Of a stretch of 64,000 bases of DNA, positions 6,044-63,622 are shown piece by piece; within the stretch, counting starts at the first letter, position 1, and each line of letters starts with the position of its first letter. The notes under the pieces are model-generated. The model saw only the letters and a list, made by a program, of their open reading frames with translations, was not told the DNA's origin and searched no databases. Origin of the DNA: Nematostella vectensis (Eukaryota); assembly GCF_932526225.1 (NCBI RefSeq), contig NC_064047.1, positions 1,817,027 to 1,881,026 of the forward strand, read 5' to 3'. A program made the position numbers and the translations under genes.

Positions 6044-6414
6044 CTTGGGAATAGAAAGATAAGGGGCAACTTATAAATTACTCGTCACTTGTTAAATCGG
6101 TAAAATGTCACCAGTTTTACTTTCGGTAATTTGCGTAACAATATCTGATAATTTTTAACGGAAAACGCGAAAAATATTTCAAAATTGTAAAAGCAGTGTG
6201 TCTATTGGAAGTTTCTTTGAGGATGTGATGTGATAATTTAGAAAGGATGGCCTGTTAATAGATTCTTGTCTCTTGAGGTTTTCGTCGGTCCTCCCGAAAT
6301 TAACTGGTGACAATGCCGCCGCTTTAATTACTCGTCACTTTTAAACTACTCGTTGTAAATAACTCGTTACCTGTAAATGACTCGTCACTTGTAAACTACT
6401 CGTTGCTTGTTTAC

Positions 6415-8869: not shown

Positions 8870-9342
8870 CTGGAAAATGGTGTCGGTAGACAAATGATAG
8901 TAATGGTATTGGTGGACAAATGTTAGTGCTAGGTGCTACATCGGCATTGAAAGGTAAACTGTAAAATGATGTAGGTAGACAATAGCTAGAGTACCACCTA
9001 GACGTTAACATGGTCTGCTTGTACAACTCCAATGAACTAGCTCGACTAAATCATCATTTCCGACAATCATTACTTTTTAACCTTTATTCTACAGGGAATA
9101 GCTATTACTAATAGAAATGCTTGGGGGTGTGGCCAGGGGGACGGCTCAGGGGGAGCCCCCCCCCTTCCAGCAGGCAAAAATACAGTAAATCTATGATACA
9201 TTACTACATTACTTAAATACAGGAACAATGCATAATCTGGGCCTTTTTAGGCCACCTCCTGTAATAAATCCTGGCTACGCCCCTGATGGTTTATAACCGC
9301 AGGCTTCCCAACCACGTCATAAGCATGACAATTTAACCATAC

Positions 9343-10619: not shown

Positions 10620-11115
10620 CCTACTTCCTCTTCCTGCATGTCACGTCACGTGATAGTAACCTCCTTTTTTGGGCGGTCACGTCACACAGTACTTACCTCC
10701 TCTCCTCCATTTCCGCCAGGTGATGTATACCCTCTCTCCACCATTTGACGTCACGTGATGATTACCTTTTCTTCCGGTAAGTGATGTCACGTGATTTTTA
10801 CCTTCTCCCTCTGAAGGTGACGTCACGTGATGCTTACCTCTCCTTCCGGCATGAGACGTCACGTGATGCTTACCTCCTCCCTCTGAAGGTGACGCCACGT
10901 GATGCTTACCTCCTCTTCAGGCATGTGATTCTAAACTCTTCTTCAGGCATGAGACGTCACGTGATGCTTATCTTCACTTTCTTAATGTGACGTTACATGA
11001 TGCTCACCTCCTTTTCCGGTAAGTGGCGTCACGTGATTCCTACCTCTTCTTCCAGTATGCGGTGTCACGTGATTTTGACCTTCACCCTCTGCATGTGACG
11101 TCGCGTGATGCTCAC
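10620..11115. repeat. About 60-bp minisatellite (about 8 copies) whose unit is the ASCC3 exon-25 donor junction (minus strand GAGGAG|GTAAGCATCACGTGACGTC)
   Basis: Every unit carries an AG|GTAAGC consensus donor plus a CACGTG E-box and a TGACGTCA CRE-like palindrome. The array abuts the real donor at 11115/11116. Confidence 0.8.
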
Positions 11116-11379
11116 CTCCTCTTCAGGCATGTGCAGCCATTGCTTGGGGTCATCCTGGGCGGCCAGGAAGGCGATCAAGTCCAGGGCTGTTAGTCTGGTC
11201 TGTCTTCTGGACGAGACGAAGACGAGGGTGGGCTTGGTCGGAGAGTGAATCCGGATCGCCTCGAAAGTTGGCTTGTTCATAGTAGCCATACGAGGGCAGT
11301 AATGCTTGCCGGGAAATCCTGTGATGTGAACCTCAAGAGGAACAGGGCGAACTGAAGGTCGGAAGTTGAACATACCAGC
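11116..11379 (-). CDS. ASCC3: ASCC3 exon 25 ([88 protein letters not shown])
   Basis: The [16 protein letters not shown] motif is conserved. Acceptor tccccaag| and donor GAG|GTGAGC. Confidence 0.9.
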
Positions 11380-12419: not shown

Positions 12420-12746
12420 GTCGACCACAAAGATAACTAGTATGAGATCTGCCAGCTCTGACTGACGCTCAGCCCAACAAACCAGTTGCATACTAGTTTT
12501 ACAGGTTAAAGAATCTACCTCTTTAATAATAACCAGATTGACTTGTTTGACATAGCTAAGCGTCTGCCAGCTCTGACTGATCCCAGCCCGACAAGCCAGT
12601 TGCATACTAGTTTTACATGTTTAAATATCTACTTCGTCAATAGTGAGCAGATTGAATTGTTTGACATAGCTACGCGTCTGCCAGCTCTGACTGATCCCAG
12701 CCCGACAAACAAATTGCATACTAGTTTTACAGTTTTAAGTATCTAC
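12420..12746. repeat. 120-bp tandem pseudo-copies (about 3 copies) of the 3' end of ASCC3 exon 23 plus its donor (…SWQTRSYVKQVNLLIIDE|GTAGAT)
   Basis: The minus-strand copies read SWQTLSYVKQFNLLTIDE|GTAGAT and ...IIKE|GTAGAT. Confidence 0.8.
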
Positions 12747-12900
12747 CTCGTCAATAATAAGCAGATTGACTTGTTTGACGTAGCTACGCGTCTGCCAGCT
12801 TCGACTGATGCCGTCCCACTTCTCCGGTGTCGTCACGATGAGGTCAGCCTGGCTAATGGAACGCGAGTCTGGTGTGACGTCACCCGTCAGTTCTATCACC
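12747..12900 (-). CDS. ASCC3: ASCC3 exon 23 ([52 protein letters not shown])
   Basis: Acceptor ccgttgccag| and donor GAG|GTAGAT. The downstream intron carries 2-3 pseudo-copies of this exon's 3' end plus donor. Confidence 0.85.
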
Positions 12901-14399: not shown

Positions 14400-15154
14400 T
14401 TGCGTGATTTCAAGTTGTGTCGCGTGATGTCACGGCCGTCTTACGTGGCCATACGTATCTGTACGAGGATTGGGTGCGTGGCTAGCTTTGTTGCGTGACG
14501 CAATGGCGTTGTATTGCGTTATTCCAAGCAATGTTGCGTGACGTCACAATGCTGTATTACGCAACCATATGTTGCGTGACGCCATGGTGCTGTATTGCGT
14601 GATTTCAATTAATGTTGCGTGACGTCACGGTATAGTATGGAATCACGGGTGGCCCTCTCAACCCTGAATTTCACTTGTTGGACGTATGTGAGCTTACTAG
14701 AAGCTCGTGTTCCTCAGTTCCAAGATGGGTCATTATTAATACATTAGGATTTTAAATGTGAAGCGCTTAGAACATGGTTGATATAAGCGCTACATAAATG
14801 TCAATTGAATTAATTAATTTAATTATTACGCGACCATACAGTGCCTGTATCTGTACGGGGTTATGTTGCGTGACGCCATGGTGCTGTATTGCGATGATTT
14901 TTAGTAGTGTTGCGTGACGTCACGGTGCAGTATTGCGTGACAATACAGTACCTGCATCTGCACGGGGTAGTGTGCGTGACGCCACGGTGTAATGTTTGAA
15001 TTCAAGTAGTGTTGTGTGACGTCACGGTGTAGTATTACGTGACAATACAGTACCTGTATCTGCACGGGGTTGTGTTGCGTGACCTAATGTTGCAGCATCG
15101 CGTGATTTCAAGTAGCATTGCGTGACATCACGGTGTAGTATTACGTGACCATAC
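14400..15154. repeat. 60/120-bp minisatellite (about 6 copies) built from the ASCC3 exon-20 donor junction (minus strand AACCCCGTGCAGATACAG|GTACTGTATTGTCACG, i.e. …NPVQTQ|GT)
   Basis: Each unit repeats the last 18 nt of the exon plus a GTA donor and a TGACGTCA motif. The array abuts the real donor at 15154/15155. Confidence 0.8.
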
Positions 15155-16387: not shown

Positions 16388-17560
16388 CTGAGATCATAAT
16401 GAAAGGGTGTATAATGTGAGATACGAACACATAATCAAGGGGTGTATAATGTGAGATACGAACACATAATCAAGGGGTGTATAATGTGAGATACGAACAC
16501 ATAATCAAGGGGTGTATAATGTGAGATACGAACACATAATCAAGGGGTGTATAATGTGAGATACGAACACATAATCAAGGGGTGTATAGTGTGAGATACG
16601 AACACATAATCAAGGGGTGTATAATGTGAGATACGAACACATAATCAAGGGGTGTATAGTGTGAGATACGAACACATAATCAAGGGGTGTATAGTGTGAG
16701 ATACGAACACATAATCAAGGGGTGTATGATGTGAGATACGAACACATAATCAAGGGGTGTATAATGTGAGATACGAACACATAATCAAGGGGTGTATAAT
16801 GTGAGATACGAACACATAATCAAGGGGTGTATAGTGTGAGATACGAACACATAATCAAGGGGTGTATAATGTGAGATACGAACACATAATCAAGGGGTGT
16901 ATAGTGTGAGATACGAACACATACTCAAGGAGTGTATAGTGTGAGATACGAACACATAATCAAGGGGTGTATGATGTGAGATACGAACACATAATCAAGG
17001 GGTGTATAATGTGAGATACGAACACATAATCAAGGGGTGTATAATGTGAGACACGAACACATAATCAAGGGGTGTATAGTGTGAGATACGAACACATAAT
17101 CAAGGGGTGTATAATGTGAGATACGAACACATAATCAAGGGGTGTATAGTGTGAGATACGAACACATAATCAAGGGGTGTATAATGTGAGATACGAACAC
17201 ATAATCAAGGGGTGTATAGTGTGAGATACGAACACATAATCAAGGGGTGTATAGTGTGAGATACGAACACATAATCAAGGGGTGTATGATGTGAGATACG
17301 AACACATAATCAAGGGGTGTATAATGTGAGACACGAACACATAATCAAGGGGTGTATAATGTGAGATACGAACACATAATCAAGGGGTGTATGATGTGAG
17401 ATACGAACACATAATCAAGGGGTGTATAATGTGAGATACGAACCCAAAATTAAAGGTTGTATAATGTGAGATACGAACACATAATCAAGGGGTGTAGAGT
17501 GTGAGATACGAACACATGATCAGGGATGTATGGTGTGAGATAGGAACTTAAGATCAGGGG
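16388..17560. repeat. 40-bp minisatellite (GGGGTGTATAATGTGAGATACGAACACATAATCAA), about 29 copies, filling about 85% of the intron between exons 19 and 18
   Basis: Direct reading. The unit resembles the last 20 nt of that intron (cattatgatctcag). Confidence 0.85.
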
Positions 17561-20339: not shown

Positions 20340-20882
20340 CGCCGTGTTAGTGAAGTTGGCTGGTCCTTACCTCGATAGTATCGAACTCGATGTAGAAGTG
20401 ACTGGTCGTGTTATCAAGGTCGGCTGGTCCTTACCTCAATAGTATCGAACTCGATGTAGAAGTTTCTGGTCGTGTTATCGAGGTCGGCTGATCCTTACCT
20501 CAATAGTATTGAACTCGATGTAGAAGTTACTAGTTGTGTTATCAAGGTCGGCTGGTCCTAACCTTAATAGTATCGAACTCGATGTAGAAATTTCTGTTTG
20601 TGTTATCAAGGTCGGCTGGTCCTTACCTCAATAGTATCGAACTCGATGTAGAAGTGACTGGTCGTGTTATCGAGGTCGGCTGGTCCTTACCTCAATAGTA
20701 TCGAACTCGATGTAGAAGTAACTAGTCGTGCTATCGAGGTCAGCTGGTCCTTACCTCAATAGTATCGAACTCGATGTAGAAGTTACTAGTTGTGTTATCG
20801 AGGTCGGCTGGTTTTTACCTCATTGGTATCGTACTCGATATAGAAGTGACTGCTCGTGGTCTCAAGGTCGCCTGGTCCTTAC
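20340..20882. repeat. 60-bp minisatellite (about 9 copies) built from the ASCC3 exon-15 donor junction (minus strand …TTCTACATCGAGTTCGATACTATTGAG|GTAAGGACCAGC)
   Basis: Units read FYIEFDTIE|GTAAGG, against the real exon end FYIKYDTIE|GTAAGG. Confidence 0.85.
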
Positions 20883-21047
20883 CTCTATAGTATCGTACTT
20901 GATATAGAAGTGACTGGCCGTTCTACCGAGGTCGGTGGCTGACAAGTAGCCTTGCTCCTCTGCAAATCTGATCATACGGGCCTTGTCCAGTTTACGAGCA
21001 GTCGACACTATCAGCTGCCGTCTGTAATTCTCGAGTGTCGGGTCATC
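20883..21047 (-). CDS. ASCC3: ASCC3 exon 15 (DDPTLENYRRQLIVSTARKLDKARMIRFAEEQGYLSATDLGRTASHFYIKYDTIE)
   Basis: Acceptor ttttcaag| and donor GAG|GTAAGG. The real donor is the first in a ladder of about 10 tandem donor copies. Confidence 0.75.
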
Positions 21048-21818: not shown

Positions 21819-21938
21819 CTCTTTATCCTTGTGAGGAATTCCATAGACTAGAGGGTTCTTGATCATTCGTATGTACAGGTAAGAGTAGCTCAGCCATTCC
21901 ACCGCTTCGTTTACATTAGTAACAGTACCAAGACAAAT
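21819..21938 (-). CDS. ASCC3: ASCC3 exon 14 ([40 protein letters not shown])
   Basis: Start of the winged-helix/Sec63 region. Acceptor cttgtag| and a weak donor GAG|GTTCGT. Phase 0 on both sides. Confidence 0.6.
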
Positions 21939-22400
21939 CTACAAGACAATGTATTACTTGAATGCGGCCTAGAAAGTCAAGTCTGAAAAAAAGGGGTGAT
22001 CATGGGATGTATAATAATCGTGTAGGGTCGAATAGTTATTCCACCGCTTCGTTTACATTAGTAACAGTACCAAGACAAATCTACAAGACAATGTATTAGT
22101 TGAATGCGGCCTAGAAAGTCAAGTCTAAAAAAAAAGGTTGATCATGGGATGTATACTAATCGTGTAGGGTCGAATAGTTATTCCACCGCTTCGTTTACAT
22201 TAGTAACAGTACCAAGACAAATCTACAAGACAATGTATTAGTTGAATGCGGCCTAGAAAGTCAAGTCTGAAAAAGGGGTGATCATGGGATGTATACTAAT
22301 CGTGTAGGGTCGAATAGTTATTCCACCGCTTCGTTTACATCAGTAACAGTACCAAGACAAATCTACAAGACAATGTATTATTAGTTTGGTGCGGCCCAAA
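21939..22400. repeat. 120-bp tandem repeat (about 4 copies) built from the ASCC3 exon-14 acceptor junction (minus strand ttgtcttgtag|ATTTGTCTTGGTACTGTTACTAATGTAAACGAAGCGGTGGAA)
   Basis: Each unit contains the acceptor plus the first about 45 nt of the exon. Confidence 0.85.
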
Positions 22401-26279: not shown

Positions 26280-27071
26280 ATGTTGCCAACCCCCATCTCG
26301 CCTTCCGCTTCCTCTTTCCTGCTTCATTCCTCCACTTATCCCTCAGCTATACAGGTCCAGGTACTTGACGGCAGGTTGACGCCCAAAGCCAGACTGCCCC
26401 CCTCTTCCACCCTTCCACTCCCTTTGTCTCCCTCCAACCCCTTACACCCATCCATAGCAGACCAGTGCCTTGATGATGTCAGTGTATAAGACGACACTTC
26501 AACCCAGAGAGACGTTCAAACCCTCCCCCCTCCCTCACATCCCTTCCAAGCGTTTCACCTCTCCTGCCTAGAGGAAGGTTAAGAGTCTAAAGAGTCGATA
26601 CCTTTGATGACAGCATGTAAAAAGAGAGAGATGCTTCAAGCCAGAGACACTAACCTATCCCCCCACCCACCCATCCCTCGCCAATGTTTTATCTCCCAAC
26701 TGTACTTTGTGCGTCAGCGAAGAGGCCCCAACAAGACCCCAACTTCTCCATCTCTTATTTCCTTTTTTTTGTACTTAAGATCAGTACCTTAATAATGACG
26801 GTGAAGTGGGTAAGACGGGGCTGACGCTTCAAGCCTGATAGACGGCCACAGCTCCCCCCGTACCATCCCATCAGCATTTCACCTTCCTCATCTTTCCAAA
26901 CATAAAAGTCTGTGAACTGGGAGTCTGTGAACTGGGAGATCGACGCCCTAACATGACATTCCGTCCCTGCCCCCATTTTTCTCCCTTCCTCTCTCTTCCA
27001 ACAAAAACCTTCCTCCCTCTCTTCCTGGCTCCACTATCCCCACCCCTCCCTCACATGTATAGGATCAGTAC
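26280..27071. repeat. Degenerate, irregular (145-270 bp) tandem copies of the ASCC3 exon-12 donor junction (minus strand ..CGTCATTATCAAG|GTACTGATC), each preceded by a CT/proline-codon-rich stretch
   Basis: Copies at about 26470 (CATCAAG|GCACTG), 26615 (CATCAAAG|GTATCG), 26805 (CATTATTAAG|GTACTGATC) and the real donor at 27071/72. Confidence 0.5.
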
Positions 27072-27642: not shown

Positions 27643-27777
27643 CTGCTTGAGGGCGCTACCGTAGTCTGGGGCCTGCTCTGCCCTGAAGAGCATGGAGTCC
27701 CCCTGATTGGAAGCCATCTCTCTTAACGTCATGGCCGTCCGCACGGTGGCATTTCTAGCATGAACAAACACCATGAC
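27643..27777 (-). CDS. ASCC3: ASCC3 exon 11 (VMVFVHARNATVRTAMTLREMASNQGDSMLFRAEQAPDYGSALKQ)
   Basis: The VMVFVHARNATVRTA motif is conserved. Acceptor tctcttcag| and donor CAG|GTACTG. Confidence 0.85.
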
Positions 27778-27960
27778 CTGAAGAGACAAATAAATAATTA
27801 TAGAACGAACAAACACCATGACCTGAAGAGACAAATAATTCTAGCATGAACAAACACCCTGACCTGAAGAGACAAATAAATAATTATAGAACGAACAAAC
27901 ACCATGACCTGAAGAGACAAATAAATAATTATAGAACGAACAAACACAAACCTGAAAAGA
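27778..27960. repeat. 45-bp tandem repeat (about 4 copies) duplicating the ASCC3 exon-11 acceptor (minus strand ctataattatttatttgtctcttcag|GTCATGGTGTTTGTTC)
   Basis: Direct reading. Each unit has a full polypyrimidine-AG acceptor plus the first 16 exon nt. Confidence 0.85.
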
Positions 27961-28125
27961 TAAATGACTACGTAGATACCATTTTCGTAATCATCACTAC
28001 AATAATTATCATTATGATCACCGTCATCAAAATCGTTTTCTTGTATTCAGATCAGTATGTTTCCGGTATTTTCAGAACAATCACCGTCATGATGATCATC
28101 ATCGACGTGATCATGAACATTACCG

Positions 28126-28129
<4 letters not shown>

Positions 28130-28163
<34 letters not shown>

Positions 28164-28422
28164 CATTATCATTATCATTATCATTATCATTATCATTATC
28201 ATTATCATTATCATTATCATTATCATTATCATTATCATTATCATTATCATTATCATTATCATTATCATTATCATTATCATTATCATTATCATTATCATTA
28301 TCATTATCATTATCATTATCATTATCATTATCATTATCATTATCATTATCATTATCATTATCATTATCATTATCATTATCATTATCATTATCATTATCAT
28401 TATCATTATCATTATCATTATC

Positions 28423-28460
<38 letters not shown>
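28130..28460. repeat. (ATTATC)n hexanucleotide microsatellite, about 55 units, flanked by ATC/ATG-rich low-complexity sequence (27960-28530)
   Basis: Direct reading. Confidence 0.95.
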
Positions 28461-28469
<9 letters not shown>

Positions 28470-28559
28470 CGTCCTTGCTATCGTAATCATTATTGTTAAC
28501 ATTATTATCAACATTGTCGCCATCTTCAAGCGCAGATCAATTCCACCTGTTTACGTAAA

Positions 28560-28994: not shown

Positions 28995-29243
28995 CTGGTA
29001 GCCCTTCTCCACGTTTTCTGTGACCTTCTCATAGCAGATCTTATCCATCTCGTGCGCTTGCTGGAACGGGTTCAGCCCTTTCACCCCGATGAACGTCTGT
29101 CCGAGGGGGACTGGGCGAAAACGTGAGTCGAAGGCGAAAAGACCTTTGTACGGGTCCACCCTTAGGAAGTGTGCGACGTCCAGATAGTTAGGGAGAGTAG
29201 CAGACAGTCCGACAATGCGAATCATGGACTGCGAGGATAACAC
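28995..29243 (-). CDS. ASCC3: ASCC3 exon 10 (VLSSQSMIRIVGLSATLPNYLDVAHFLRVDPYKGLFAFDSRFRPVPLGQTFIGVKGLNPFQQAHEMDKICYEKVTENVEKGYQ)
   Basis: Helicase motif III (SAT) is present. Acceptor attgtag| and donor CAG|GTATAG. Confidence 0.85.
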
Positions 29244-30400
29244 CTACAATACATATTAAGATAAATTCCAACAGATGGTTAGGAAGAGTGGCAGATAGGC
29301 CGACAATGCAAATCCTAGACTGTGAGGACAAAACCTACAATACATATTAAGATAAATTCCAACAGACGGTTAGGGAGAGTGGCAGATAGGCCGACAATGC
29401 AAATCCTAGACTGTGAGGACAAAACCTACAATACATATTAAGATAAATTCCAACAGATGGTTAGGGAGAGTGGCAGATAGGCCGACAATGCAAATCCTAG
29501 ACTGTGAGGACAAAACCTACAATACATATTAAGATAAATTCCAACAGATGGTTAGGGAGAGTGGCAGATAGGCCGACAATGCAAATCCTAGACTGTGAGG
29601 ACAAAACCTACAATACATATTAAGATAAATTCCAACAGATGGTTAGGGAGAGTGGCAGATAGGCCGACAATGCAAATCCTAGACTGTGAGGACAAAACCT
29701 ACAATACATATTAAGATAAATTCCAACAGATGGTTAGGGAGAGTGGCAGATAGGCCGACAATGCAAATCCTAGACTGTGAGGACAAAACCTACAATACAT
29801 ATTAAGATAAATTCCAACAGATGGTTAGGGACAGTGGCAGATAGGCCGACAATGCAAATCCTAGACTGTGAGGACAAAACCTACAATACATATTAAGATA
29901 AATTCCAACAGATGGTTAGGGAGAGTGGCAGATAGGCCGACAATGCAAATCCTAGACTGTGAGGACAAAACCTACAATACATATTAAGATAAATTCCAAC
30001 AGATGGTTAGGGAGAGTGGCAGATAGGCCGACAATGCAAATCCTAGACTGTGAGGACAAAACCTACAATACATATTAAGATAAATTCCAACAGATGGTTA
30101 GGGAGAGTGGCAGATAGGCCGACAATGCAAATCCTAGACTGTGAGGACAAAACCTACAATACATATTAAGATAAATTCCAACAGATGGTTAGGGAGAGTG
30201 GCAGATAGGCCGACAATGCAAATCCTAGACTGTGAGGACAAAACCTACAATACATATTAAGATAAATTCCAACAGATGGTTAGGGACAGTGGCAGATAGG
30301 CCGACAATGCAAATCCTAGACTGTGAGGACAAAACCTACAATACATATTAAGATAAATTCCAACAGATGGTTAGGGAGAGTGGCAGATGGCCGACAAGGC
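29244..30400. repeat. 90-bp minisatellite (about 13 copies) built from the ASCC3 exon-10 acceptor junction (minus strand tatgtattgtag|GTTTTGTCCTCACAGTCTAGGATTTGCATTGTCGGCCTATCTGCCACTCTCCCTAACCATCTG)
   Basis: Unit = the last about 27 nt of the intron including the acceptor, plus about 63 nt homologous to the exon start (real: GTGTTATCCTCGCAGTCCATGATTCGCATTGTCGGACTGTCTGCTACTCTCCCTAACTATCTG). Confidence 0.85.
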
Positions 30401-30599
30401 AAATATTAAACATCCTCTGTCTTAGCCATTTTATCATCCTAGCAAAGCACCACTTTTATCGGCTAAATAAGGGGAATTAATGTCATATTTTAGATTGAAT
30501 TTGTTAAATAAAGAATCAAACTTTGTTTTTAGATGGCCTCTAGATGTCTTACTAACACATGAGAGATTAGCGAACAGCAAAACAAATAATGCAACGTCC

Positions 30600-30790
30600 T
30601 TGCTTAAAGCCTCAGGGATACTCGGGTTTTGCTCGGAAATGCCGATGATTTCCTGTTGTAACGTCCTCGCTATAAAAAGCCTCAGGGCTTTTCGGGATTT
30701 ACTCGGAAATGCCGATGATTACCTGTCGTAACGTCCTCGCTAAAAAGTCTCGGGACTAATCAGGGTTTACTCGGAAATGGCGATGATTAC
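30600..30790. repeat. 60-bp tandem copies (about 3 copies) of the ASCC3 exon-9 donor junction (minus strand GCGAGGACATTACGACAG|GTAATCATCGCCATTTCCGAG)
   Basis: Direct reading. One copy has its donor mutated to GAAATC. Confidence 0.8.
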
Positions 30791-30955
30791 CTGTCGTAAT
30801 GTCCTCGCCACAAGGCACTCAATGACGGAGCCACGGTCATCATGCAGCAAATGAACCTCGTCAATGATGAGTAGCTTGACAAGCTGAGCCAGCGCTACAT
30901 CTCCAGTGGACTTACGTGTGACAACATCCCACTTTTCCGGGGTAGTGACAAGCAT
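30791..30955 (-). CDS. ASCC3: ASCC3 exon 9, containing the DEVH box ([55 protein letters not shown])
   Basis: The DEVH motif and a TTPEKWD motif are present. Acceptor tgtcgcag| and donor CAG|GTAATC. Confidence 0.85.
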
Positions 30956-33339: not shown

Positions 33340-33436
33340 CTTAGATCCTGCCACAAAGCTGGCTCCCATCTGTCTCTCTAACATGGTGTCATATACGTGG
33401 GGGTACCTCTCAACTGGGCGCACTAGCCGTGGTCTG
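33340..33436 (-). CDS. ASCC3: ASCC3 exon 5 (S RPRLVRPVERYPHVYDTMLERQMGASFVAGSK), with a tandem NAGNAG acceptor (tag|tag|CAGACC)
   Basis: Donor AAG|GTAAAG. Either AG of the NAGNAG pair keeps the reading frame. Confidence 0.55.
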
Positions 33437-59047: not shown

Positions 59048-61339
59048 GTAAGAGAAGTGGATTATAGGGAGCTTGAAGCTCGAATCTGGGTTCCACTCTT
59101 TGTGCCTGGGGCTATATTGTGTATGTTTGTGGTGATTTTTATTTCGTACATCCAGTACATAGAATGAAGTGATGGCAGAAAGTGTCGAAAATGTGGGGAT
59201 GAACATGGTGGGTGGGTGCTAGTGAAAAAAAGTCAGGATTTCCATGATAGCGACAGTGGATGGGGAAAACTGAAACGTTTGTAATAATTAGGGTAGTGAG
59301 AATATAAAGAATATGCTTCGTATGTACGTGACGATCTAACTTATCTAGAAACATCTCTGAAATTGTTTATAAACCTCTAGATCAAGAATTAATTAAATGC
59401 GTGTTTTGTTTTGTAATAGCACTAAAAAGAAAAATAAACAATTTTGTGAAGATCATCAATTTCAAGCCATAGTGTGATGGACAAGAACTTAAAAGCAACA
59501 CATCATCTTTTGTTTCAAAGCAGACGTAAAAATGACTATTTCTCTACTTCGGCTTATTTTAGACCTTTTGATACGTTTGGTAAGCTGGGGTCTGATAGAC
59601 ACACCTTTAGAAATGTTCCCGAAGAGAAGACAGAAATGTGATATGCCATTTGCCTTTAAAAGACCTATCATTCGTTTTGAAACATGAGGTGGGGAGGAGG
59701 GCTGATTAACACTCTTTAATAAACAAAAACAGGTATCAAGCAGATGCTTGTCAATGTACACTTACTCATTCCCTGTTTGGGTTGAGAGCGTAAAATTCAA
59801 TTAAAACCAGGAAGCTTAGCCCAAGTGTGCCCCCTTATGGTAATGTCAGCAGTCAAGATAGGGGCTACTAGGTTACGCTCGGACAGACAAAACAAAAAGA
59901 ATGGAGCAATTAATAAGTTTTTAACTCTTTAACCGATAAAAGGTCAGAGGTGAGCTCGAGCTTGTAGAGATATTTATTTTATTTTGAGGCATCGAGGGAG
60001 TAGTACGGATGATGGTCTACACTGTGTGGAAACCCCAAAAACAGTGAAGATAAAGAAAAGAAGAAAAAAAGCCGGGAATAGTTAAATGCAAACCGTTGAA
60101 AAATATCAATTGGAATAAAGCCGCTCAAAAAAAAATCTAGCTTAGAATATAACTCGATTCACAGACCCATTTGCCCCTTAAGCTTTTTTTTTTGGCAATA
60201 TAGTAATTCCTAGAAATGCCATATTTGCCATATTCGCGTGACCATTGAAGGGAGTTGGATATAGCAGCAACTGGATCATAAACAATCCAAGTGTCACAGC
60301 CAGGACAGAGCAGAAAAACTTGCACGAAACACGATTAAGCATTCTATTAGTGTCTTACATTCAGTTTTGCATAAATTCATTCTGATATTGCATAAATGAT
60401 CCACGATATGAAGTCCAACGGCTTGCTTAGTAACAGCCTCTGGCATAGCCTCTGAGAGAACAATCTTGTCTAGTTCTTCGTTACGTCATTTCCTGTTTAC
60501 GATTGCGTAGGCGTGCCCAGTTCTCCTCCGGTCTGCCCCAAGGATGATGGTCGACGAAACGGCTTGAAGACATTTGGAAGTCATCAAGCCTCTGTTAGCG
60601 GTTGAATATCCTAAACGGCACTAAAATCCTTCCTCTGCTCAATACCTTTTCTTTCGCTGTGTGTATCATTTCTTATTTGTTCAAACTACAAGCGCATCTC
60701 AATGTTCCTTTTTTAAAGTTTATTGGATTACGTCATCGTGTGGTAAAAAATTTGCCTTTCAGATATTCGAAACCTGGCTTTTAATGTTTTAAAAACATGT
60801 TTGATGAGTCCAAGAAGAAATGGTTAAATGTTAACTCAAAAGAAGAGCTACGTCTTTTTTCGTGACGTGCTGACCCTATTAGTAAGCATTGTTGTATGTA
60901 TATGCGCCATTTGGAAAGAGTTAGTGATGCCGGCATATTTACAGCCTTTGAAAGGCCCCGTTAGGGGCTTAACCAGACAAGCTCATCTATCATATAGCGA
61001 TTTGTACGTCTCATTACATGAATTACGCTCATTTAGTTTAAACCTTTCGGCGTCGGCCTTTTGGTCAGTTTAAACTACCGAAGACGGTTATTACAGCAAT
61101 TAGTAACCCAAAAAGCCGCAGATTGGAGCAGATAGTTCCACATGGATGTATTTTGTTTCCTTTTTTGAGAGTGATTACACTCTAATAAATAGCATATTTC
61201 TAGTTACAGGGGCGTTTAAGGGTCAATGGGTAAGAGGTAGTGAAAGGCAGTGTGGGGGGACTTCATGTAAGATGGTTTGACCATTTAGTCGTTCGGTATT
61301 TGAGCAAATGTGTGATAATTCTGTTAATGCTTGAGGGTG

Positions 61340-62132
61340 CATTTTTGCCGCCATTTGTTCTGACACCTCTGTTACCATGTTTGCAAGCGCATGTTTCCCG
61401 CCATTTGTTCTGACACCGCTGTTTTCTGTTTGCAGGCGCATGTTACCTGCCATTTGTTCTTGTACCGCTGTTTTCATGTTTGCAGGCTCATGTTTCCCGC
61501 TATTTGTTATGAAACCGCTGTTTTCATGTTTGCAAGCGCATGTTTCCCACCTTTGTTCTGACACCGCTGTTTTCATGTTTGCAGGCGCATGTTTTCCTCC
61601 ATATGTTTGATACCGCTGTTATCATGTTTGCAGGCGCATGTTTCCCGCCATTTGTTCTGATACCACTGTTTTCATTTTTGCAAGCGCAAGTTTCCCAAAA
61701 TTTGTTCTTATACCGCTGTTATCATGTTTGCAGGCGCATGTTTGCTGCCATTTGTTCTGACACCGCTGTTTTCAAGTTTGCAGGCGCATGTTTCCCGCCT
61801 TTGTTCTGACACCACTGTTATCATGTTTGCAGGCGCATGTTTCCCGCTATTTGTTCTGACACCGCTGTTTTCATGTTTGCAGGCGCATGTTTTCCACCAT
61901 TTGTTATGACACCGCTGTTTTCATGTTTGCAAGCGCATGTTTCCCGCTATTTGTTCTGACACCGCTGTTTTCATGTTTGCAGGCGCATGTTTTCCACCAT
62001 TTGTTCTGACACCACTGTTATCATGTTTGCAGGCGCATGTTTCCCGCTATTTGTTCTGACACCGCTGTTTTCATGTTTGCAGGCGCATGTTTTCCACCAT
62101 TTGTTATGACACCGCTGTTATCATGTTTGCAG
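61340..62132. repeat. 50-bp minisatellite (about 15 copies) built from the TBX20 exon-3 acceptor junction (unit GCGCATGTTTCCCGCCATTTGTTCTGACACCGCTGTTTTCATGTTTGCAG)
   Basis: Each unit ends in the acceptor tcatgtttgcag| and restarts with the first 19 nt of exon 3 (GCGCATGTTTCCCGCCATT). The last unit is the real acceptor and exon. Confidence 0.9.
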
Positions 62133-62249
62133 GCGCATGTTTCCCGCCATTCGCGTGAAGGTGTCTGGTTTGGATCCCCATGCGCACTACATACTAGTGA
62201 TGGATGTAATACCGCTGGACGGCAAACGCTACAGATACGCATATCATAG
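62133..62249 (+). CDS. TBX20: TBX20 exon 3 ([39 protein letters not shown]-)
   Basis: RMFP...VSGLDP...[12 protein letters not shown] is the TBX20 signature. Acceptor tgtttgcag| and donor AG|GTAAGT. Confidence 0.9.
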
Positions 62250-62810: not shown

Positions 62811-62869
62811 GTGAGTGTTCATTGATAGCTAGGCATGATGTCCGCATGACAATATATGCTGATGCTGAT

Positions 62870-63600
62870 GCTGCTGCTGCTGCTGCTGATAATGGTGGTG
62901 GTGGTGATGGTGGTGGTGGTGGTGGTGGTGGTGGTGGTGGTGGTGGTGGTGGTGGTGGTGGTGGTGGTGGTGGTGGTGGTGGTGGTGGTGGTGGTGGTGG
63001 TGGCGATGGCGATGGCGATGGCGATGGCGATGGCGATGGCGATGGCGATGGCGATGGCGATGGCGATGGCGATGGCGATGGCGATGGCGATGGCGATGGC
63101 GATGGCGATGGCGATGGCGATGGCGATGGCGATGGCGATGGCGATGGCGATGGCGATGGCGATGGCGATGGCGATGGCGATGGCGATGGCGATGGCGATG
63201 GCGATGGCGATGGCGATGGCGATGGCGATGGCGATGGCGATGGCGATGGCGATGGCGATGGCGATGGCGATGGCGATGGCGATGGCGATGGCGATGGCGA
63301 TGGCGATGGCGATGGCGATGGCGATGGCGATGGCGATGGCGATGGCGATGGCGATGGCGATGGCGGTGGCGGTGGCGATGGCGATGGCGATGGCGATGGC
63401 GATGGCGATGGCGATGGCGATGGCGATGGCGATGGCGATGGCGATGGCGATGGCGATGGCGATGGCGATGGCGATGGCGATGGCGATGGCGATGGCGATG
63501 GCGATGGCGATGGCGATGGCGATGGTGATTGTGATGGTGATGGTGATGGTGATGGTGATGGTGGTCATGTTGTTGATGATGATGATAATGATGATGATGA
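62870..63600. repeat. Compound microsatellite (GCT)n-(GGT)n-(GGCGAT)n-(GGTGAT)n-(GAT)n, about 730 bp, in TBX20 intron 4
   Basis: Direct reading. All four long six-frame ORFs here are artefacts. Confidence 0.95.
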
Positions 63601-63622
63601 TATGCTTTTTCTTTGCAAATAG

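Follow-up and report, generated by a model that had tools for sequence, protein, structure and literature searches.

A junction-spanning minisatellite array in intron 9 of Nematostella vectensis ASCC3, probably a mirage-type by-product of tandem duplication

How does an intron come to hold a dozen near-identical copies of its own 3' splice junction, and are such copies more than a passenger of the gene that carries them? The question is raised by a 64,000-nt stretch of the genome of the sea anemone Nematostella vectensis (hereafter the window, to whose numbering all positions refer unless another locus is named), in which a head-to-tail array with a unit that spans the intron 9/exon 10 boundary stands directly before coding exon 10 of the gene ASCC3. 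The original prediction, made from the letters of the window, had placed a junction-derived array beside this exon, which encodes the SAT motif (motif III), and had taken it for the largest of its kind in the window. Both points are confirmed here, the first by a tandem-repeat search and a spliced gene model, and the second by the repeat listing and a comparison of junctions. Based on the anatomy of the array, its divergence from the exon, its presence in a second assembly, and the recurrence of similar arrays at other junctions, we conclude that it is very probably a mirage-type minisatellite, that is, a near-neutral variable-number tandem repeat (VNTR) whose unit spans a splice junction and that is tolerated as a by-product of tandem duplication.

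Tandem Repeats Finder, run on the whole window, reports the array with a period of 91 nt, 13.5 copies, 98% matches, and a score of 2336 (for the coordinates of this and other features, see Table 1); the intronic portion of the array is 29244-30404. The motif TTGTAGGT occurs 13 times on the minus strand at a spacing of exactly 91 nt, and these occurrences are 12 pseudo-junctions and the real junction. In each unit, 28 nt of intron tail (TTGGAATTTATCTTAATATGTATTGTAG) precede 63 nt that copy the start of exon 10, and the sequence after the acceptor is GTTTTGTCC at the pseudo-junctions versus GTGTTATCC in the real exon 10. The original prediction of thirteen 90-bp copies, each made of 27 nt of intron and 63 nt of exon, was correct for the exon part, but the intron contributes 28 nt, all copies have a period of 91 nt, and the thirteen copies resolve into 12 full pseudo-copies plus a 40-nt partial one, the thirteenth occurrence being the real junction. 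Eight of the units are identical to the consensus, two share a C>G change at unit position 77, and the two exon-nearest units have one private change each. At the opposite end, the boundary remnant differs from the unit by one mismatch and a 1-nt deletion.

Inside the intron, the array runs on in register and without a gap into the authentic junction, and its last unit abuts the real intron tail at 29271/29272. This register, the match of the tail at 28 of 28 positions, and the 84.1% identity of the exon part bear out the proposed origin of the array from the intron 9/exon 10 junction. No other junction-spanning array in the window is as long. A second array, at the donor end of the same intron, has a 68-nt unit made of 18 nt of the end of exon 9 and ~50 nt of the start of the intron, and ~88% of intron 9 is junction-derived when the acceptor and donor arrays are taken together.

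Table 1. Positions in the window of the intron 9/exon 10 features of ASCC3 and of the junction-spanning arrays. A slash marks a splice junction.
Feature	Position	Strand	Description
Coding exon 9	30791-30955	minus	donor CGACAG/gtaatc; must join the last acceptor of the array
Intron 9	29244-30790	minus	1547 nt; acceptor array 1161 nt plus donor array 198 nt
Boundary remnant at the gene-5' end of the array	30364-30404	minus	~40 nt of the end of the exon-like part
Twelve full 91-nt pseudo-junction units	29272-30363	minus	each with 0-1 differences from the consensus
Authentic 3' end of intron 9, acceptor AG included	29244-29271	minus	28/28 match to the tails of all 12 units
First 63 nt of exon 10	29181-29243	minus	source of the exon-like part of the unit
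Coding exon 10	28995-29243	minus	249 nt, phase 0; encodes the SAT motif III region
Array at exon 9 donor	30593-30808	minus	68-nt unit; second junction array in intron 9, ~2 extra donor-site copies
Array at exon 10 acceptor	29181-30404	minus	91-nt unit
Array at exon 11 acceptor	27753-27965	minus	45-nt unit
Array at exon 14 acceptor	21896-22380	minus	142-nt unit
Array at exon 15 donor	20343-20935	minus	64-nt unit, 8-9 copies
Array at exon 23 donor	12448-12809	minus	114-nt unit
Array at exon 25 donor	10746-11133	minus	36-nt unit, ~10 copies
Acceptor array of the T-box gene (Tbx15/18/22-like)	61339-62151	plus	50-nt unit, 16 copies

The exon numbering follows from a reconstruction of the gene by tblastn and a search for GT-AG boundaries, which identifies it as N. 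vectensis ASCC3 with 34 coding exons on the minus strand between 38921 and 3957. The translated spliced model (2187 aa) agrees with the N. vectensis protein P0241 (UniRef A7RPC5) at 2186 of 2187 residues. A rough concatenation of the candidate exons is 96% identical to this protein, and its next best match is Actinia tenebrosa at 72%, with Branchiostoma at 60%; an amphioxus origin of the window, which the mirage literature had brought to mind, is thereby rejected. The model is 60 to 72% identical to ASCC3 of other animals, with orthology over the full length and the SAT motif in the exon concerned.

The units are far more like one another than any of them is like the exon, as the original prediction had noted. 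Copies are 97.8 to 100% identical, close to the predicted value of about 98%, with a mean pairwise difference of 0.70% and a maximum of 2 nt. The unit consensus differs from the real junction at 0 of 28 positions in the intron tail and at exactly 10 of 63 in the exon part (15.9% divergence), which agrees with the prediction of about 10 differences and about 85% identity; the probability that none of 10 differences distributed over 91 nt would fall in the 28-nt tail is ~0.025. Seven of the differences are synonymous and three are nonsynonymous (M>R, R>C, and Y>H), which gives a ratio of nonsynonymous to synonymous difference (pN/pS) of 0.17 with a pS of 0.40, and at the three replacement sites the real exon keeps the residues that it shares with Actinia and Actinostola. 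Neutrality of both lineages, exon and array, is rejected (P=0.007), while a constrained exon together with an unconstrained array is compatible with the differences (P=0.089), and selection on the pseudo-exon is therefore not needed. Such selection was considered and rejected, as the 7:3 synonymous excess is not significant once the constraint on the real exon is allowed for.

Interior units are alike and boundary copies are diverged (private changes at the exon-proximal end, truncation and two changes at the distal end), as is the case under concerted evolution. Based on the pS of 0.40, the founding duplication should be old. The original prediction had proposed that the expansion be dated by setting the divergence between copies against that between copy and exon; both divergences could be measured, but dating by inter-copy identity is unsafe because of concerted evolution, which is visible in an identical five-unit block (described below) and in an intron tail that is homogenized right up to the real exon.

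The original prediction would have been refuted by an independent assembly without the array, but the one compared here carries it. The protein P0241 is encoded exactly on DS469525.1 of the 2007 Sanger assembly GCA_000209225.1 (locus L001). The window and L001 differ by one residue in the protein and in array lengths, and the window is therefore from another assembly or haplotype than L001. The array is present in L001 with a period of 91 nt and 8.5 copies, or 7 full units versus 12 in the window. The L001 units comprise the same two exon-proximal variants, four consensus units, and one C>G unit, followed by the same boundary remnant. The surplus in the window is one exact copy of a five-unit block (four consensus units and the C>G unit; 455 bp), and an exact block difference of this kind is what unequal exchange between misaligned units produces. 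Only two other arrays differ in copy number between the window and L001, namely, a 35-nt array (16395-17547 in the window, 31216-31843 in L001) with 33 versus 18 copies and an ATTATC microsatellite (28129-28470 in the window, 19996-20110 in L001) with 57 versus 19 copies; the other junction arrays have equal copy numbers in both.

The original prediction had also suggested a search for the same array in sister species. Our comparison comprises Actinia tenebrosa (L002) and Actinostola sp. (L003) and does not include close relatives in the Edwardsiidae. In both species the orthologous intron has the same position and phase (...TLRQ/VE...) and the exons start with GT, and the array is absent from both despite the shared intron position. 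The Actinia intron is 228 nt long and contains no junction copies, while the Actinostola intron contains a 64-nt array whose consensus, judged by eye with no alignment, has no evident likeness to the junction. The same intron without the array in these two species indicates that intron 9 is old and that the array is, as far as these sequences indicate, specific to the Nematostella lineage at the depth of the comparison. Elsewhere in the Actinostola sp. gene (GCA_033675265.1; L003 14497-15042), an 85-nt array spans a different junction, the acceptor of the exon orthologous to Nematostella exon 13. The Actinia gene has five tandem-repeat rows, none of them obviously junction-derived by eye; of its junctions, only that of exon 10 was tested.

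If the spliceosome were to use a pseudo-acceptor, the reading frame would be broken. The original prediction had described the unit as frame preserving, so that each included unit would add 30 aa, and had noted a TAG in frame. The frame-preserving reading is wrong, as the period of 91 nt is not a multiple of 3 (91 = 3x30+1) and use of a pseudo-acceptor therefore gives a frameshift and a premature stop. Read in the exon frame, one unit yields a recognizable peptide from its exon-like part and then LEFILICIV through the tail, with no stop; in the following unit the reading is shifted by one base, so that a TAG there closes the frame after 36 codons. Thus, a TAG does stop the frame, although it is the TAG of the second unit rather than the first. 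No reading frame, among all frames, stays open beyond ~37 codons through the array. A transcript with such a premature stop would be expected to be removed by nonsense-mediated decay.

Both protein models (the 2007 JGI model and RefSeq XP_032219371.1) join exon 9 (...TLRQ) to the last acceptor, and the last copy must be the site used for the protein because it is the only one continuous with the remaining 186 nt of exon 10. The upstream sequence offers no basis for this choice. With a weight matrix built from the other acceptors of the gene, the pseudo-sites score 7.0 bits versus 6.5 bits for the real site, and the sequence upstream of the pseudo-acceptors and the real acceptor is identical for >91 nt. 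What is left to tell the sites apart lies downstream, namely the divergence of the exon sequence and, in the exon-definition model, the real donor at a distance of 249 nt.

These observations suggest a history in which a 91-nt segment straddling the intron 9/exon 10 boundary would have been duplicated in tandem, placing a second acceptor and a truncated exon start inside the intron. The 3'-most copy, alone continuous with the rest of the exon, would have stayed the real junction under purifying selection, while the upstream copy would have lost its coding constraint and acquired the M>R, R>C, and Y>H replacements. Much later, unequal exchange or replication slippage would have amplified and homogenized the upstream copy to 7 to 12 units, with the homogenization reaching the intron tail beside the real exon and stopping at the exon boundary. 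The resulting array would most likely be a tolerated passenger that has inflated intron 9 about five- to seven-fold compared with its Actinia orthologue, and it would present 12 acceptor look-alikes that the spliceosome must ignore. DNA secondary structure is not indicated as the driver of slippage, as the unit folds no better than shuffled sequences (z=+1.17). There are no Rfam matches at gathering thresholds in the whole window.

Arrays of this kind have a precedent in the amphioxus mirages, which are known from Adh3, the globin genes BflGb6 and BflGb9, troponin C, and PGBD5 (Cañestro et al. 2002 NAR, as cited in PMC3087553 and PMC3902484). In these two reports, mirages are described as polymorphic in length, as evolving in concert except at cluster boundaries, and as leaving splicing undisturbed, and the mechanism of their origin is called unclear (PMC3087553, PMC3902484). 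The ASCC3 arrays have all the structural features of this class. Their units span an intron/exon junction and so multiply splice signals, they occur in acceptor and donor types, their unit sizes fall in the amphioxus range of tens of nucleotides to ~160 nt, and they lie in the intron beside the authentic junction. Like the amphioxus mirages, the exon 10 array varies in copy number between haplotypes (for ASCC3, between two assemblies, of which the older is possibly collapsed), evolves in concert with boundary copies that escape homogenization, and leaves the authentic site as the one found in gene models or mRNAs (for ASCC3, in gene models only). It differs in that its host is a cnidarian rather than a cephalochordate, in that it has 12 near-perfect copies compared with the 3 to 6 reported in an amphioxus globin gene, and in that seven such arrays occur in one gene; and while normal splicing was demonstrated by reverse transcription-PCR in amphioxus, in ASCC3 we infer it only. 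In the open-access literature searched, we found no report of junction-spanning minisatellites in Nematostella or other cnidarians, and we conclude that the ASCC3 array belongs to the known mirage class in a phylum for which no report was found.

Two other systems are instructive for what they do not share with this array. Intron 7 of human F7, the single human case known, carries a VNTR of 37-bp units, the first of which extends across the exon 7/IVS7 boundary, and 5'-to-3' scanning picks the first site (PMC1557585). As in ASCC3, a polymorphic minisatellite repeats a functional-looking splice site beside the authentic one, and the pseudo-sites are silent, or in ASCC3 appear to be so. In contrast, F7 repeats a donor and its authentic site is the first copy, while the exon 10 array repeats an acceptor and its authentic site is the last. 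The scanning rule therefore does not explain the choice made in the exon 10 acceptor array, although it could hold for the donor arrays of exons 9, 15, 23, and 25. The second system is the gain or sliding of introns by tandem duplication across AGGT proto-splice sites (the Rogers model; PMC4974935, PMC2891723). Here too a duplication takes in splice signals and exon sequence ends up inside an intron, and the ASCC3 junction is itself AG/GT. Unlike the outcome of that model, no new intron or exon has formed in ASCC3; an existing intron, whose position is conserved across sea anemones, has been lengthened.

The exon 10 array does not stand alone. A search with each of the 66 ASCC3 junctions, together with unit alignments, found junction-spanning copies at seven junctions (Table 1), and there is one short extra copy of the exon 12 donor at ~26801. 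The identity of these arrays to their real junctions ranges from 85% to 100%, and they therefore appear to be of different ages; unit sizes range from 36 to 142 nt and the registers all differ, which suggests a generic duplication process with no sequence-specific element. Outside ASCC3, the unit of the T-box gene array is made of that gene's own intron tail and ~19 nt of exon start, and 15 pseudo-acceptors precede the real one (62132/62133).

Minisatellites make up 27% of ASCC3 intron DNA. Seven of the 21 ASCC3 minisatellites span a splice junction, compared with 1.3 to 2.1 (~1.7) expected under random placement of the founding unit (P from 5e-5 to 2.5e-3). Among the 14 that do not span a junction, 4 lie within 8 nt of an intron end, compared with 0.49 expected under random placement within their own introns (P~0.001). 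In all, 11 of 21 arrays sit on a junction or no farther than 8 nt from it, which is several-fold above random placement. Because these tests are post hoc and concern one gene in a window picked for its unusual look, they are suggestive and not conclusive. We regard it as conceivable, though rather doubtful, that minisatellites in Nematostella, as perhaps in amphioxus, preferentially arise or survive at splice junctions.

Other repeats and features of the window were noted in passing. The four arrays counted above as close to an intron end (14824-15154, 16395-17547, 6329-6410, and 8876-8927) lie 0 to 7 nt from it with no exon overlap; among them, the 102-nt array begins directly with the first base of intron 20. 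Intron 12 (~26339-27033, minus strand) contains scattered, diverged, nontandem partial copies of the 3' end of exon 12, with traces of LALGVNLP... and ...VIIKVLIL, which are possibly what is left of an old junction array of the donor type. At the boundary of exons 4 and 5 (~33340-34147), the 2007 model P0241 and the RefSeq model P0361 disagree (...AAQRYLIVQNGQHYCILSGGAVVYIERYPHV against ...AAQRESALHLASITSSSNSLFSSRPRLVRPVERYPHV), and the older model probably reads into the intron there; the coordinates given for these two exons follow that older model. The other genes of the window, a matrix metalloproteinase gene and the T-box gene, are both on the plus strand. A 28-nt, 16-copy array (47079-47525) ends near a metalloproteinase exon that encodes a cysteine-rich ShK-like peptide, ~4 kb of C/A-rich 44-nt and 69-nt arrays (47672-51585) separate the two genes, and an intron of the T-box gene holds the pure microsatellites (TGG)37 and then (TGGCGA)93 (62857-63601).

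Several other explanations of the exon 10 array were weighed. The look-alikes could be a regulatory decoy, kept in order to divert a tunable fraction of ASCC3 pre-mRNA to degraded, stop-containing isoforms, so that copy number sets expression. The amphioxus mirages, which are reported not to disturb splicing (PMC3087553, PMC3902484), argue against such a role, as do the absence of the array from two other anemones and a five-unit difference between assemblies that gives no sign of constraint. It is true that the pseudo-acceptors score as high as the real one, that use of any of them leads to a stop after 36 codons, and that the 28-nt tail, with its candidate branch points, is perfectly kept in all copies; however, recent homogenization explains this identity, and the exon-like part is just as uniform despite having no role in splicing. 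We therefore consider the decoy unlikely. More improbable again is a recursive-splicing ladder, in which exon 9 joined to a pseudo-acceptor would regenerate a donor (CAG/GTTTTG), since the units begin AG/GT, and the array would be traversed harmlessly, one step at a time. The regenerated CAG/GTTTTGTC scores 6.7 bits, above 10 of the 33 real donors and above the 95th percentile of the GT sites of the gene, but each step would be a 91-nt intron, and AG/GT is missing in other acceptor arrays (TAG/AT at exon 14, CAG/GC in the T-box gene) and is therefore not needed for tolerance. Known recursive splice sites (ratchet points) are single conserved elements that are used in very long introns. The ASCC3 units resemble them in having an acceptor directly before GT, with a donor regenerated after ligation, but would differ from them in being 12 tandem copies in a 1.5-kb intron.

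The remaining alternatives have very little in their favor. Copy number does differ between the two assemblies, as might be expected of an assembly artifact, for instance if a long-read assembler had wrongly expanded a short duplication, but the 2007 Sanger assembly has the same array, the same remnant, and the three variant units in the same order, with one clean five-unit block as the difference, and we give an artifact almost no credence. It is just as hard to see the units as tandem alternative exons in a mutually exclusive cluster or as frame-preserving pseudo-exon extensions. Although the exon-like part still gives a recognizable peptide in the exon frame, only 63 of the 249 nt of the exon are copied, the period of 91 nt is not divisible by 3, no frame remains open past ~37 codons, and conserved residues are replaced in the units; moreover, internal GTs score from -5.3 to 1.8 bits and the pseudo-junction GT scores 4.6 bits, compared with a median of 7.7 bits for real donors. 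Capture of a gene fragment by a mobile element (a Helitron or Pack-type transposon), with the array forming later, is also extremely improbable. Cnidarian genomes carry Helitron-derived arrays (PMC11934779), but nothing specific points to one here. The array directly adjoins its source junction and shares its register, its units are the sole junction-spanning copies of the exon 10 junction in the window, and each of the seven arrays in the gene copies its own adjacent junction.

Some observations also weigh against our own conclusion that the array is a near-neutral mirage-type minisatellite. The pseudo-acceptors score as well as the real site, and our reading gives no account of how the spliceosome ignores 12 of them; moreover, we infer their silence from gene models only. 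The difference of 7 versus 12 units could be a collapse of the perfect 455-bp repeat in the older assembly and not a true allele. Finally, purely random duplication with neutral retention does not account for the enrichment of arrays at junctions.

The presence of this structure at high density in a cnidarian, together with the Actinostola example, means that junction minisatellites are not a cephalochordate oddity. The exon 10 array is a natural experiment in acceptor choice, in which 12 acceptors cannot be told from the real one over more than 90 nt upstream, while the gene models and an intact protein require the last. Junction arrays inflate introns, easily collapse in assemblies, and offer decoy splice sites to gene predictors. 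The enrichment at junctions, if general, bears on intron growth and on the rise of new splice sites. If it were found genome-wide, it would point to duplication coupled to exon boundaries (e.g., breakage or template switching linked to transcription, to splicing, or to the chromatin of exon edges) or, alternatively, to a retention bias near constrained splice sites. Either process, if true, would be a general driver of intron growth and a standing reservoir from which early-branching animals could form new splice sites and introns.

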